64,000 bases of DNA from Candidatus Latescibacterota bacterium (GCA_965226795.1 CBDDDZ010000005.1:160001-224000); one strand, 5' to 3'; shown: positions 1 to 64,000, counted from the first letter of the stretch. A program made the numbers and translations. The notes: a model not told the origin generated them from the letters alone.

Positions 1-1
1 A

Positions 2-1084
2 CGGCTCAGGCCGGAGAACTACTGGTACGGGCAGCCGTACAGTTATCTGACGCGGGATATGTTCGACCTGAGCGCCCGGATTGTGGATGGCGTGAATTCG
101 GAGGTACGGGTCCGGAACGGGTTGGCAGAAATGGCGCTTCCCCCTCTGCTGGCCGGTTCCCAGACGGGTCGGTTTCTGGACTACGCTCATGTGGGAAAAA
201 CGGAGGAACTGACGTCCTTCCAGCGCAAACTCCGGATGTTGCGGTGGGCGAGGCACTGCTGGCGGGTGGGGAAACGTCGGCGGCGTATCGCGGAGGCGGA
301 TCTTGCGCCGTCACTCAGGCACGAGCGCGCGTGGGAGGTCTGGCTGGATTGGTCCCGGGACACGATGAATGCGTTCGGCATCCGGCTGGAAGTGACGATA
401 GCCCCGATGTTTCGCACACTTGTCCGGGAAATGGACCTTTCCGGTGGGGGTCAGAAGATTCTGTTCCTGCCCTCGCACCAGAGCATGCTGGAGCATTTCG
501 TTGTGTTTTCGGTGTTCAACGATCCGGTGTTTCTGGATGCCATGGGATGGGATCGTTCCCGCCCTGTGGTGCAGCTGGCCCGCACGGGTCTGGCGAAGTC
601 GACGTCGGTGAAGATCGGATCCCTCGAGATCAGTATCTTCGGTATGTCTCCGGACAAATTCGACAGGATGTTCGAGTCCGTCGACGGCTTCATCACCCGA
701 GACAGTGTGGATATCTCATCCCATACGATACCGCGCATCCTGAAGGAAATGGAACACCGCCCGGGTCTGATTTATCCGATGGGCACAACGGCTTCGTTCG
801 ACGTGCAGTTGTTTCCGCTGCAACACGCTCTGTTTGCGAAACTGCCCCAGGACGTCGTGATGATTCCCATCGCCTTTCGAGGCAGCCATGCGCTCTGGCC
901 AAAGTGTCCTGCACGCAATCTGAATATCAATCCGGGTGTGGTCGAGGCGGTGATTTTACCACCCATGCCGGGCGAGACCACGTTGCTGCCGCGCCGCCGG
1001 TCCCTGCGGATCCAGCTTGAGGCCGCCAATCTGCTTCAGGCGGTACATATTTCGAATCTGCTGAATCCGGAACCCTCTCAATAA
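2..1084 (+). CDS. PlsC/LPLAT-superfamily acyltransferase, 5'-truncated by the window edge
   Basis: Frame is open from base 2 (RLRPENYWYGQPYSYLTRDMF...). Block I-like LPSHQSMLEH, block III-like IYPMGT, block IV-like VVMIPIAFRGSHALWPK. Confidence 0.7.
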   Translation, partial: RLRPENYWYGQPYSYLTRDMFDLSARIVDGVNSEVRVRNGLAEMALPPLLAGSQTGRFLDYAHVGKTEELTSFQRKLRMLRWARHCWRVGKRRRRIAEADLAPSLRHERAWEVWLDWSRDTMNAFGIRLEVTIAPMFRTLVREMDLSGGGQKILFLPSHQSMLEHFVVFSVFNDPVFLDAMGWDRSRPVVQLARTGLAKSTSVKIGSLEISIFGMSPDKFDRMFESVDGFITRDSVDISSHTIPRILKEMEHRPGLIYPMGTTASFDVQLFPLQHALFAKLPQDVVMIPIAFRGSHALWPKCPARNLNINPGVVEAVILPPMPGETTLLPRRRSLRIQLEAANLLQAVHISNLLNPEPSQ

Positions 1085-1174
1085 GGATCCGGGCAGGTAC
1101 GTCCGGTGTCATCTTACGGGATTGTCCGGTCGCATTGGCCGGGCCCGGACGGTTGTGGTTATGGGGAGCACGTT

Positions 1175-3034
1175 ATGACTGAGTGGGAAATAACAGCGGT
1201 TGCCGTAGCGGTTGCCGTAGCGGTTATTCTGGCGGTTGCGCTTCTGTCGAAACGGAGGCGTTCAGGAAGCGAACCGGACGCTTTTTTCGATCATTCGGAA
1301 GGGGAACGATTCCCCCACAAGTGGGGATATACGGATACGCGGTTCGAGTTCGTAGACGACCGGACGGTGAGGGTAAGCGGGAGCCGGTACCCGATTTCGG
1401 GGTACGAGATGCCGTTTCTGGTCGCCTTTGTGGAGGACGTGCTGGGCATTGCGATCCGGAGGGAAGACTCGTACGCAGAACGTGAGGATATCGGAGCGCC
1501 CGAGCCGAATGTGGAAGCAGCTTTCGGGAACGCGGTGAAAGAACGGTTCAGAGACGCGCAGGTTTCGTTCGATCCAAAAGTCAGGCTGGTACACAGCCAC
1601 GGACAGCTGAGTGTTGAAGAAGTGTATCGGGTGATGTATGGAGATTCAGTTCCGCGGCTGGTCGATCTGGTGTTCTACCCGGAGGAAGAAGCCGACGTCA
1701 AGGCCATGATCGAACTGGCCAACGAGCACAACGTCTGCCTGGTGCCCTATGGCGGGGGGACCAATGTGAGCGGGGCGCTGGCGTGTCCGACAGAAGAACG
1801 GCGAACGATCGTGTCCGTGGATATGCGACGGATGAAACGGGTGCAGTGGATTGACGAGGCCAATCTGCAGGCTTGCGTCGAGGCGGGTATTTCGGGAAAA
1901 GGCCTGGAGCAGGTGCTGGGAGAGAGGGGTTATACGTCGGGCCACGACCCGGATAGCGTGGAACTGTCCACGATGGGCGGGTGGATTTCGACAAACGCGA
2001 GCGGGATGAAGAAGAACCGATACGGCAATATCGAAGACATCGTGCTCGAGGCAACGCTGGTGACGCCTACAGGGGAAATCGCGACCCGCCGGGTGACGCC
2101 CAGAAACTCGACGGGCGTTCAGCCGAGGGGATTGTTGTTCGGCAGCGAGGGCAATTTCGGCATAATCACGACGGCCGTGATCAAGATTCATCCGATCCCC
2201 GAGGCGCGCAAGTACGGCGCCCTTGTCTTTCCGGCCTTCGAGAAGGGCGTTGCATATCTGAAGGCGCTTCGGCAGACAGGCATGTTGCCCGCGAGCATCC
2301 GCCTGGTCAACAACAACGAATTCCGTTTCGGTCAGGCCCTGAAACCGGAGCCGACGTCCTTGAAAGGGGTCAAGGAACGGATTCAGAAGTTCGTTCTGTT
2401 GAAGGTCCTGGGTTTCGATCCGATGAAGATGGCGGCGTGTACCATCGTGATGGAGGGCACGCACGCCGAAGTGCGCCAGCAGGAACGCACGATCTTCAGC
2501 CTGGCAAAAGAATACGGCGCCAGGAGCGCGGGCGCGAGCAACGGCAGGAGAGGATACTCACTGACCTTCGGCATCGCCTATATTCGGGACTTCCTGAATC
2601 AGTACGGCATTCTGGGCGAAACCTTCGAGACGTCGGTTCCCTGGGATCGGATCCACCAGGTATGCGATGCGGTATCGGAGGAACTGGTGACGCAGGCGGC
2701 CAGACACGAGGTGCCGGGTAAACCCTACCTCTCTTACAGGGTGACGCAGACCTATCATACCGGCGTCTGCATCTATTTTACGATGGGTATTTGCGGCAAG
2801 GGCATGGAACAGCCCGGCCGGACGTTTCACGCGATCGAACACCATCTGCGCCAGGTGATTCTGGACAACGGCGGGTCGTTGTCGCACCACCACGGCGTCG
2901 GCAAGGTCAGGCGGGAATTTCTGACCCAGATCCAGACCGATACCAGCATCCAGGTCATGCGCCAGGCGAAGAACGCGATGGATCCGAAAAACATCTTCGG
3001 GATCGGGAATGGCGTTTTTGGGGGAACGGACTGA
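1175..3034 (+). CDS. agpS: Alkyl-dihydroxyacetonephosphate synthase (FAD-linked, VAO/PCMH family) with N-terminal TM anchor
   Basis: PYGGGTNVS, GHDPDSVELSTMGGWISTNASGMKKNRYGNIED, PASIRL, ETSVPWDR, RVTQTYHTGVCIYF and SLSHHHGVGK all match AGPS signatures. GGGGAG RBS precedes ATG 1175. Confidence 0.88.
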   Translation: MTEWEITAVAVAVAVAVILAVALLSKRRRSGSEPDAFFDHSEGERFPHKWGYTDTRFEFVDDRTVRVSGSRYPISGYEMPFLVAFVEDVLGIAIRREDSYAEREDIGAPEPNVEAAFGNAVKERFRDAQVSFDPKVRLVHSHGQLSVEEVYRVMYGDSVPRLVDLVFYPEEEADVKAMIELANEHNVCLVPYGGGTNVSGALACPTEERRTIVSVDMRRMKRVQWIDEANLQACVEAGISGKGLEQVLGERGYTSGHDPDSVELSTMGGWISTNASGMKKNRYGNIEDIVLEATLVTPTGEIATRRVTPRNSTGVQPRGLLFGSEGNFGIITTAVIKIHPIPEARKYGALVFPAFEKGVAYLKALRQTGMLPASIRLVNNNEFRFGQALKPEPTSLKGVKERIQKFVLLKVLGFDPMKMAACTIVMEGTHAEVRQQERTIFSLAKEYGARSAGASNGRRGYSLTFGIAYIRDFLNQYGILGETFETSVPWDRIHQVCDAVSEELVTQAARHEVPGKPYLSYRVTQTYHTGVCIYFTMGICGKGMEQPGRTFHAIEHHLRQVILDNGGSLSHHHGVGKVRREFLTQIQTDTSIQVMRQAKNAMDPKNIFGIGNGVFGGTD

Positions 3035-3061
3035 GACATAAAGAATGAATGGTCTCGCTAT

Positions 3062-3390
3062 GGGGCCGCGTGATGTTTCTCCTAAATATCTTATTATTAA
3101 TTTTTTACGCCCTTTTTCTTTCTCGCCAAAGAAAAAGGGCCAAAAAGAACGGCGCCGCTCGGCACGGAGCCGGTTTTTCCACGAATCTCGTCATCGGCGA
3201 ATACTCACGGTTGTTCCCTGCGTACGCACCCGGACCCATGGCGCTTCGGCGCTGAACGGAATAGCGTGGAAAAACCCACCTCTCCACCTCCGGGCGCGTG
3301 ACGGACATATTCGGTGAGTGGGCGCCAGAAATGCGCCTGTCGCCAAATGTGCAGTTCAACGGCTCATGCGATGGCCCGCATGACGTCCTT
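3062..3390 (+). repeat. Dispersed ~300-bp structured repeat family A, copy 1 (no palindrome insert)
   Basis: TTTTTACGCCCTTTTTCTTTCTCGCCAAAGAAAAAGGGCCAAAAAGAACGGCGCC is shared with the reverse complement near 14640-14700 and, with a few substitutions, with 63860-63910. Boundaries approximate. Confidence 0.8.
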
Positions 3391-3501
3391 TTACGCCGCG
3401 TTTTAGTTCGTAGGGGCAACCCTTTTGGTCGCGTCAAAAGGAACCCGCCGGAGGCAGGGAATTTAGGGGGAAGAGTTTTTTGATTTTGGTTTGCGCCTTT
3501 G

Positions 3502-3584
3502 GCTGACCACTGCCTGCTGTTCGCTGCACGCTATTTGCTAACTACTGATTTTTCCTTTTGTGTCTTCGTGCCTTTGTGTGAGAG
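3502..3584. repeat. Degenerate heptamer tandem repeats followed by octamer repeats
   Basis: gctgacc|actgcct|gctgttc|gctgcac|gctattt|gctaact|actgatt, then ttttgtgt|cttcgtgc|ctttgtgt. Confidence 0.55.
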
Positions 3585-3658
3585 ATGAGTGCGAGGGCGC
3601 CAGAAGGGCTGGCTGATTGCTGTTTTTACTGACTGCTGTTTGAAGGATGGTTTTTTTT

Positions 3659-4465
3659 ATGTTCAACGGAAAGATCGTCGCGATAACCGGGGCGTCATCC
3701 GGCCTGGGCGCCACGCTGGCGCTGGCATTCGCGGAGGAGGGAGCGGACCTTGCGCTGTTCGCCCTAGACGAGGGTGTGCGGGAGACGGCGGAAGCGTGCC
3801 GTGAGCGGGGCAGCCGCGTGATTACGGCCACCGGCGACGTTGGAAAACCCGGTGACTGCCAGGGTTGGATCGACGCGGCGGTTTCCGAGTTCGGGGCCGT
3901 AGACTACCTGGTAGCCTGCGCCGGGATCAGCATGTGGGCGCGGTTTGAAGAGGTGGAGGATCTGGAAATTTTTCGCAAGTTGATGGAAACGAACTATCTG
4001 GGTGTCGTGCATTGCGTGTATTACGCGCTGCCCCACCTGAAAGCCCGCGACGGGATGGTTGTGGCGATTTCATCTATCCAGGGCAAGATCGGTGTGCCCA
4101 TGCACACCGGATACGTGGCGTCCAAGCACGCCGTCCAGGGATTCTTCGAGTCGTTGCGAACGGAGTTGCTCGACACCGGCGTGGACGTGCTGACGGTGTT
4201 GCCCCACTGGCTGCGCGGGACTAACTTACGCAAGGCGGCCTTCGGGAAGGATGGCGGCTCCCTGGGCGGGTCAAGCCGAAAGCACAGCAAGGAGTCGATA
4301 TCGCTGGACGACGCATGCACGGCCATCATCGAAGCCATGAGAAAGAGGAAGCGGGAACTGATTATTCCGTTCAAGCTCAGATTTCTGCCCTGGCTGCATC
4401 TGATCAATCCGAAGATTGTCGAATACCTGGTAACGCGTGGCGTGGCGAAGCAGGATAAGGGTTGA
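3659..4465 (+). CDS. Classical SDR oxidoreductase, DHRS7/DHRS7B-like
   Basis: TGASSGLG, NYLG, SSIQGKIGVP, YVASK (YxxxK), QGFFESLR. Confidence 0.88.
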   Translation: MFNGKIVAITGASSGLGATLALAFAEEGADLALFALDEGVRETAEACRERGSRVITATGDVGKPGDCQGWIDAAVSEFGAVDYLVACAGISMWARFEEVEDLEIFRKLMETNYLGVVHCVYYALPHLKARDGMVVAISSIQGKIGVPMHTGYVASKHAVQGFFESLRTELLDTGVDVLTVLPHWLRGTNLRKAAFGKDGGSLGGSSRKHSKESISLDDACTAIIEAMRKRKRELIIPFKLRFLPWLHLINPKIVEYLVTRGVAKQDKG

Positions 4466-14369: not shown

Positions 14370-14730
14370 AATATGCGGGCAACTATGAAAGTTTCCGCTA
14401 CAAATGCAACGGCGGCGCCACGTGGGCGGTTCGCCCGCTCCTGCGTCTAATCCATCGTGCAGCCGGTGGCGGAGATGGGGGCTTTTCCGCGCAATTCCGT
14501 CCACGCACGTCGCCTGGGAAGTGCTGGAGACTTCGCAGGGCACAACCGCTGGTGCCTATGGCAGGAGTAGTTCGTGGAAAAGCAGCCCCGCGGCGTCTGA
14601 GCGGCCTGCCTGCGCCGAGCCGTGCTCGGCAGGCAGGCGCCGTTCTTTTTGGCCCTTTTTCTTTGGCGAGAAAGAAAAAGGGCGTAAAAAAAAACAATAA
14701 GATGGAAGGAAAATGACCTCATGGGCCCGG
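14370..14730 (-). repeat. Structured repeat family A, copy 2 (inverted, with palindrome insert)
   Basis: Reverse complement aligns with copy 1 over ~300 nt (TTTTCCACGAA, CGGTTGTnCCCTGCG, ACGGAATnGCGnGGAAAA blocks). Confidence 0.8.
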
Positions 14731-63819: not shown

Positions 63820-64000
63820 CGCCCGTAAAGTTATCCCTATAACTTCATTATTATTAAATTTTTACGTCCTTTTTCTTTCTCGCCAAAGAAAAAGGATCAA
63901 AAAGAACCGGGCCTGCCTGCGCCGAGCACGGCTCGGCGCAGGCAGGCCGCGCGGCGCGGAGCCGGTTTTTCCGCGAATTGCCTGACTGGTGAATACAGGC
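63820..64000 (+). repeat. Structured repeat family A, copy 3 (truncated by the window end, with palindrome insert)
   Basis: TTTTTACGTCCTTTTTCTTTCTCGCCAAAGAAAAAGGATCAAAAAGAAC...GGAGCCGGTTTTTCCGCGAAT. Confidence 0.8.

Follow-up and report, generated by a model that had tools for sequence, protein, structure and literature searches.

A conserved FAR-acyltransferase-AGPS-SDR gene cluster in Candidatus Latescibacterota with a probable role in ether-lipid synthesis from dihydroxyacetone phosphate

We analysed a stretch of 64,000 nucleotides (hereafter the window; G000:C5:160001-224000) from the genome of a Candidatus Latescibacterota bacterium, which is assembled to 5.41 Mb in 5 contigs with a completeness of 95.9% and a contamination of 3.5%. 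The subject is a group of genes at the beginning of the window. Positions 1-4465 contain three open reading frames (ORFs) on the + strand, at 2..1084 (5′ end open), 1106..3034 and 3647..4465. An earlier sequence-only reading had described them as three co-oriented genes for an acyltransferase (AT), alkyl-dihydroxyacetone phosphate synthase (AGPS) and a short-chain dehydrogenase/reductase (SDR) of an ether-lipid pathway, and had guessed that a fatty acyl reductase (FAR) lies further upstream. When the 15 kb upstream of the window were included, the order on the + strand was FAR, a 646-aa AT, AGPS and SDR. The features are:

G000:C5:157212-159017, + strand: FAR gene, 601 aa, upstream of the window and 127 bp before the AT gene
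1..1084, + strand: 3′ part of the AT gene (residues 287-646 of 646); the full gene occupies G000:C5:159144-161084 and begins 857 bases before the window
1106..3034, + strand: AGPS gene with an N-terminal membrane helix (FAD_binding_4, FAD-oxidase_C, match to solved AGPS)
3080..3585, no strand: dispersed intergenic repeat between the AGPS and SDR genes, with modules at about 3080-3306 and 3421-3585
3647..4465, + strand: classical SDR, predicted acyl/alkyl-dihydroxyacetone phosphate reductase (adh_short, NF004825, linkage with AGPS)

The route to ether lipids from dihydroxyacetone phosphate (DHAP) is textbook knowledge for animals, and the best-known bacterial example is Myxococcus, in which the route plays a minor part. 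The conserved FAR/AT/AGPS/SDR cluster probably makes 1-O-alkyl-glycerol-3-phosphate, an ether-lipid precursor, by this route. We observed the gene content, the gene order and its conservation, the orthology of AGPS together with its catalytic residues, and a PlsC fold with a His/acidic dyad in AT; from these we infer all substrates and products. The clustering of ether-lipid genes proposed earlier for a bacterium that is not myxobacterial was borne out at the level of gene content, order and conservation, and the close relatives of the host are indeed Candidatus Latescibacterota.

Products of the clustered genes

The flavoprotein contains the VAO-type pair of Pfam domains, FAD_binding_4 (1.7e-38) and FAD-oxidase_C (4.7e-37). 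Among solved structures, it matched guinea-pig AGPS (4bby) with an E-value of 1.3e-146 and 493 bits over query residues 72-635, which include the AGPS-specific N-terminal region, and Dictyostelium AGPS (2uuu) with 1.1e-85 and 292 bits. The best match to a flavoenzyme other than AGPS reached 93 bits (E 1.5e-25), and the GlcD model of NCBIfam gave 162 bits, under its cut-off of 568. Grouping with lactate/glycolate dehydrogenases, an outcome adverse to the earlier reading, was therefore not seen. The segments PASIRLVNN, GVCIYFTMG and SLSHHHGVGK were confirmed in the translation, and each aligned with its counterpart in guinea-pig AGPS. Their Arg (in SIRL), Tyr (in CIYF) and HHH loop, which we take from the AGPS structure work to be the catalytic residues, are identical to those of the guinea-pig enzyme in the alignment and invariant in 18 relatives. 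The 4bca chain differs from wild-type 4bby at exactly the residue aligned to the query Tyr.

The N-terminus of the protein, MTEWEITAVAVAVAVAVILAVALLSKRRR, forms a strongly hydrophobic segment (Kyte-Doolittle 3.03 across 19 aa), in line with the membrane anchor suggested before, and a hydrophobic N-terminal segment is found in 105 of the 120 AGPS relatives listed. The start codon is likely the ATG at 1175, which gives a protein of 619 aa; a 619-aa form (P0077) is recorded at 100% identity. Judged by its sequence, the flavoprotein is a true AGPS, orthologous with the animal enzyme, and its predicted reaction is the exchange of acyl-DHAP with fatty alcohol. Acyl-DHAP is a strict requirement of AGPS. 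A metagenome protein of 1060 aa (P0090) shares 67% identity with this AGPS across 96% of the AGPS length and additionally contains PF00155, PF01212 and PF01053 (aminotransferase class I/II-type), being a fusion of AGPS with a PLP-enzyme module.

The 646-aa protein gave no match to any Pfam or NCBIfam model, and the scan of the source genome with PF01553 missed it as well. The search for relatives returned 75 proteins with a length near 650 aa, almost all of them without a name. PF01553 was detected at E≤1 in 14 of the 35 aligned family members, with 8.9e-8 as the best value. The AlphaFold (AF2) model built from the family alignment had a pLDDT of 89.7 and a pTM of 0.92. Residues 356-646 of the model matched PlsC of T. 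maritima (5kym), a 1-acyl-glycerol-3-phosphate acyltransferase, with a Foldseek E-value of 1.7e-4, and superposed on nearly its whole chain (VIA Z 16.1, rmsd 3.5, 233 of 241 residues aligned, two-helix N-terminal motif included), with the His/acidic motif shared and a sequence identity of 11%. Next after PlsC came the glycerol 3-phosphate (G3P) acyltransferases, namely GPAT1 and the plastid and squash GPATs, at VIA Z 8.4-9.0. The PlsC-like catalytic unit is thus C-terminal, comprises residues ~356-646 (~290 aa) and lies entirely inside the window. In the HX4D motif, His445 is present in 35 of 35 members, and position 450 is always acidic (28 D, 7 E). Motif III reads YP(M/A)GTT, which we take to be a departure from the canonical form.

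In contrast to PlsC, AT has an extra N-terminal part of 355 residues. It forms a long-helix domain whose best structural matches (Z≤6.6) are typical of helical bundles, and an Atlas search with residues 1-352 returned no usable match. The AT-family profile found nothing among PDB sequences (best E 0.15), and the acyltransferase domain of ElbD-type proteins matched AT weakly, over 71 residues only (35% identity, E 1e-5). The PF01553 matches of the relatives and the predicted fold are the two grounds on which we call the protein an acyltransferase; sequence and model together indicate a new, divergent family of the PlsC fold, with a substrate assigned indirectly. The earlier view of the first gene as an acyltransferase can thus be retained, although the protein is not recognisable as GNPAT. 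DHAP is the probable acyl acceptor, given the operon with AGPS and the failure to find GpsA (see below).

The FAR expected upstream was found directly before AT. It combines NAD_binding_4 (3.8e-62) with a C-terminal Sterile domain (3.2e-16), as in the eukaryote-type fatty acyl reductases, and tblastn showed such a gene to be the single one in the source genome. It shares 51% identity with the FAR module found in ElbD-like FAR-ACS-ACP-AT proteins of Latescibacteria metagenome-assembled genomes (MAGs); no ElbD-type multidomain protein was found in the source genome. Among the FAR relatives P0197-P0316 there are two classes of long multidomain proteins, ElbD-like FAR-ACS-ACP-acyltransferase proteins of ~1430-1460 aa and FAR-ACS-HAD proteins of ~1200 aa. 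The ElbD-like ones come partly from Latescibacteria, Acidobacteriota and Planctomycetota MAGs.

The last gene codes for a classical SDR (adh_short, 3.4e-44) that passes the NCBIfam model NF004825, a family without assigned function, with 285.7 bits at a cut-off of 215. Its cofactor and catalytic motifs are ITGASSGLG (TGxxxGxG), SSIQG (Ser) and YVASK (YxxxK), and the translation holds the segment SSIQGKIGVP...YVASKHAVQGFFESLR. The nearest solved relatives were clavaldehyde dehydrogenase (7.6e-24), 3-hydroxybutyrate dehydrogenase (6.7e-23) and 11beta-HSD1 (1.5e-21), with no clear winner, and the Atlas search with this SDR returned generic bacterial SDR clusters only.

Linkage of the genes in relatives

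To describe the neighbourhood of the AT family, 80 of the 139 loci found were fetched. They come mostly from Candidatus Latescibacterota, with some from Gemmatimonadota and others. FAR was located just upstream of AT in 50 of the 80 loci; it was absent from 29 loci with at least 1800 bp of upstream sequence, and one locus was too short. AGPS was present downstream of AT in 42 loci and absent from 29 with at least 2500 bp of sequence, while 9 were too short. In 37 of these 42 loci, AGPS was followed by an SDR with an identity of at least 50%. Four of the remaining five are cut by a contig end, and the fifth (L058) contains an SDR that is 28% identical. In the 30 AT loci that have neither FAR nor AGPS nearby, AGPS is encoded at another place in the genome and the SDR adjoins it there (e.g., G131, G121, G141 and G059). 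These four are examples of family f3, in which AT is far away and the AGPS-SDR pair is nonetheless adjacent.

A second set was obtained by scanning metagenome contigs with an AGPS alignment. It comprised 80 loci with AGPS at 48-67% identity, 63 of which had at least 900 bp of downstream sequence. With a limit of 300 bp, an SDR (36-78% identity) on the same strand, starting -3 to 177 bp after AGPS, was observed in 45 of the 63, and in one more it was 1800 bp away. The AT family occurred in only 8 of the 80. A Pfam scan of the neighbours in 11 of the metagenome loci showed that AGPS-SDR is immediately preceded by a small PF01553 acyltransferase in two (L133 and L171), which gives a second, non-orthologous trio. 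In another (L138) a FAR-acyltransferase fusion follows AGPS, and in L119 FAR precedes it. The linkage of the SDR to AGPS, on which the earlier reading had made its claim depend, is therefore kept in relatives (37/42 and 45/63). Because the combination of an acyltransferase with AGPS and this SDR family is found repeatedly, in forms that are not orthologous, we propose the SDR as the pathway reductase, that is, a predicted acyl/alkyl-DHAP reductase; this recurrence is the main support for a role that is derived from gene linkage.

Some further arrangements were noted at these loci. In L133 (3143-7601) and L171 (3224-7669), an HMG-CoA reductase gene and the small PF01553 acyltransferase precede AGPS-SDR on one strand, and L129 (3065-7535) has the same ORF layout, layout alone having been compared. 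A GFO/IDH/MocA-family oxidoreductase lies beside AT where FAR and AGPS are not adjacent (L048 9984-11045, L059 6765-7814, L062 6759-7817, L096 8400-9449). It was considered as an alternative reductase, as it adjoins AT in f3-type loci, and was rejected, since no close ortholog is encoded in the source genome (identities of 30% or less).

The spacing between AGPS and SDR is 612 bp in the source genome vs. 67-110 bp in the closest relatives. Window positions 3040-3640 gave 83 matches in the source genome at 70-100% identity and contain a dispersed two-module repeat, the first module of which opens with a 30-base palindrome. Further copies are located in the window at about 14636-14703 (- strand) and 63848-64000 (+ strand). 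Six terminator-like hairpins were counted in the gap vs. 2.0 expected, and no Rfam family came near its gathering score there. Parts of the stretch are present in ten metatranscriptomic runs, three of which, from two studies, show the contig layout. Contigs from these RNA libraries span AT-AGPS and extend upstream (X7, 4100 letters; X8, 5866; X11, 5759). The SDR is on separate contigs, and parts of 3190-3700 are thin or uncovered. Such contigs document presence in RNA libraries and are proof neither of transcription nor of one transcript, carried-over DNA being possible; a contig break at the repeat is expected from assembly and says nothing about co-transcription.

Phospholipid-entry genes and the proposed pathway

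Profile searches of the source genome found no PlsY (PF02660), no PlsX (PF02504) and no C-terminal domain of GpsA (PF07479). The search for PF01553 returned two small ORFs only, of 249 and 276 aa, and no PlsB-sized protein. The controls for the PlsY, PlsX, GpsA and PF01553 searches were positive in 8-10 of 14 known genomes. The acyltransferase candidates that could supply AGPS with acyl-DHAP in the source genome are AT and the two small ORFs only. The same genes were then counted in a phylum sample of 151 genomes, 115 of the own class (f1-f4, source genome included) and 36 of other families. The resulting pattern is essentially one phylogenetic contrast and not many independent events:

AT family: own class 113/115; other families 2/36
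AGPS (E≤1e-100): own class 107/115; other families 1/36
SDR ortholog (E≤1e-50): own class 104/115; other families 1/36
PlsY: own class 0/115; other families 29/36
GpsA: own class 0/115; other families 29/36
PlsX: own class 2/115 (one weak, below cut-off); other families 33/36

The only strong PlsX match in the own class (1.9e-108) is in G126, where contamination or reacquisition could explain it. G003 (99% complete), a genome of another family, has a FAR-AT pair, and no PlsY, PlsX, GpsA or AGPS was found in it. G020 has both systems. In G015, a 96% complete genome of another family of the phylum, none of PlsY, PlsX, GpsA and the new AT was found. Five genomes under other phylum labels had PlsY in 1/5 and GpsA in 0/5; as their completeness and placement are uncertain, we do not treat them as independent evidence. 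In the genus, GlpK exceeded its curated cut-off in 7/7 genomes, and the GlpD-type DAO_C domain was found in none of the seven. With GpsA absent from the class searches and DAO_C from those of the genus, de novo G3P has no recognised source. The presence of GlpK means that G3P is not excluded, and it weighs against a strict no-G3P reading.

In the proposed pathway, FAR would supply the fatty alcohol by reduction of an activated fatty acid, and the PlsC-fold AT of 646 aa would acylate DHAP to 1-acyl-DHAP. The membrane-anchored AGPS would then replace the acyl group by the alcohol to give 1-O-alkyl-DHAP, whose keto group would be reduced by the SDR to yield 1-O-alkyl-sn-glycerol-3-phosphate. One of the two small PlsC-type enzymes of the genome could acylate the sn-2 position. 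We put forward more tentatively a wider proposal, in which the class gave up the PlsX/PlsY or PlsB entry with GpsA-made G3P and makes all its glycerolipids, ester and ether, by a eukaryote-like acyl-DHAP pathway that begins with the new AT family and has its reduction after acylation. The distribution data fit AT and the reductase as the only phosphatidic acid entry of the class, without amounting to proof.

Several observations weigh against the proposed pathway. AT occurs without AGPS in five genomes (G003, G100, G108, G136 and G102), one of them the genome with the FAR-AT pair, and is therefore not tied to AGPS alone. The AT of the source genome has no Pfam match and carries Glu rather than Asp in HX4D, a conservative departure, and a preference for DHAP or G3P is not readable from the modelled fold. 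AT could instead be a new G3P acyltransferase in place of PlsX/PlsY, with G3P provided by glycerol kinase or an unrecognised dehydrogenase and acyl-DHAP by a side activity or another enzyme. GlpK in all seven genus genomes, the retention of AT where AGPS is missing, and the nearest solved folds, which are lysophosphatidate acyltransferase (PlsC) and G3P acyltransferases, speak for it. We nevertheless consider it unlikely, as GpsA was found in none of the 115 class genomes and DAO_C in none of the seven of the genus, AGPS strictly needs acyl-DHAP, and AT shares an operon with AGPS in 42/80 loci. The cluster could also serve neutral or signalling lipids, such as wax esters or alkyl-diacylglycerols, and not the bulk ether phospholipids of the membrane. 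The FAR-AT pair without AGPS in G003 would suit such a role, as would the 51% identity of FAR to an ElbD-type module, since Myxococcus products include neutral alkyl-diacylglycerol, according to PMC9131029. A near-universal, single-copy AT (113/115), a class without PlsY and GpsA, which fits a core membrane role, and the membrane anchor on AGPS make this improbable. PEDS1/CarF (PF10520) was not found in the source genome by a search whose control was positive in 0/14 genomes and which is thus an unvalidated negative; vinyl-ether plasmalogens are therefore not predicted.

The other doubts concern the last step. Any specific likeness of the SDR to DHRS7B, as suggested earlier, is putative. The SDR does not adjoin AGPS in 17 of the 63 metagenome loci, and in the source genome the repeat with its terminator-like hairpins parts the two genes at the place where the RNA-library contigs break. 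It could be a neighbour of unrelated function, with alkyl-DHAP reduced by another enzyme; SDRs are abundant (46 first-look candidates in the source genome), and in Myxococcus the corresponding place in the operon is taken by another NAD-dependent family (MXAN_1674), according to PMC9131029. We hold this to be very improbable. The adjacency persists down to 36% identity for the SDR and 48% for AGPS, with gaps of -3 to 177 bp, and outlasts the separation of AGPS from AT. Moreover, the SDR ortholog is missing from all five checked genomes that have AT without AGPS.

Comparison with known systems and surrounding genes

The proposed DHAP pathway would have the same four activities and the same logic as the animal peroxisomal pathway (FAR1, GNPAT, AGPS and DHRS7B/PexRAP), as judged from the genes. 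The likeness is clearest for AGPS, an ortholog of the guinea-pig enzyme with Arg, Tyr and HHH kept, and FAR shares both Pfam domains with the animal FAR. In contrast to the animal system, the genes are clustered and belong to a bacterium. Unlike GNPAT, AT has no Pfam match, and its catalytic unit is C-terminal, behind the 355-residue helical domain. The animal AGPS has a peroxisomal targeting signal, in place of which the cluster AGPS has a membrane helix.

PMC9131029 and PMC13012113 describe a Myxococcus operon of AGPS, FAR-acyltransferase and NAD-epimerase and argue for a myxobacterial origin of the eukaryotic ether-lipid pathway; PMC13012113 also states that AGPS carries too little phylogenetic signal. 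Both operons are bacterial and join AGPS, FAR, an acyltransferase and an NAD-dependent oxidoreductase. By that account, the present cluster differs in having separate FAR and AT genes, an AT of another, Pfam-invisible family, a classical SDR, another gene order and a Latescibacterota host. A FAR-AT fusion adjoining AGPS does exist in one metagenome locus (L138). ElbD-type proteins lead to ether lipids in Myxococcus, including the neutral alkyl-diacylglycerol (PMC9131029). The likeness to the elb cluster lies in the FAR module; the source genome has no ElbD-type protein, and the ElbD acyltransferase domain matches AT over the short segment given above. A 2026 preprint (10.64898/2026.06.23.733905) reports agps and elbD matches in sponge MAGs of Poribacteria, Acidobacteriota and Latescibacterota. 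A full-text literature search, supplements of the two key papers aside, returned no account of a FAR-AT-AGPS-SDR operon, of the AT family or of the AGPS-SDR pair, nor of a bacterium without PlsX/PlsY/PlsB/GpsA that uses acyl-DHAP.

The analysis places a full set of ether-lipid genes, as a conserved operon, in an uncultured phylum associated with sponges and sediments, and it adds an acyltransferase family invisible to domain libraries. It also singles out, on wide gene linkage, one SDR family as a candidate for the bacterial alkyl/acyl-DHAP reductase that had been missing. If the wider proposal is true, a bacterial lineage begins all phospholipid synthesis from DHAP and not from G3P, which is a testable possibility. 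These data have a bearing on the origin of alkyl-glycerol ether lipids in the environment and in sponges, and on the debate over the bacterial origin of the eukaryotic pathway.

According to the Pfam scan, the cluster is followed by convergent bioD and bioA genes and preceded by divergent DNA-methylase and ATPase genes. The latter belong to a minus-strand block at G000:C5:148825-156905 (L002 3825-11905), divergent from the FAR gene. The block, which resembles a restriction-modification or defence island, encodes an N6_N4 DNA methylase, a methylase of the Eco57I type, a 739-aa protein bearing two HATPase_c-type domains, and ORFs that lack a Pfam match.

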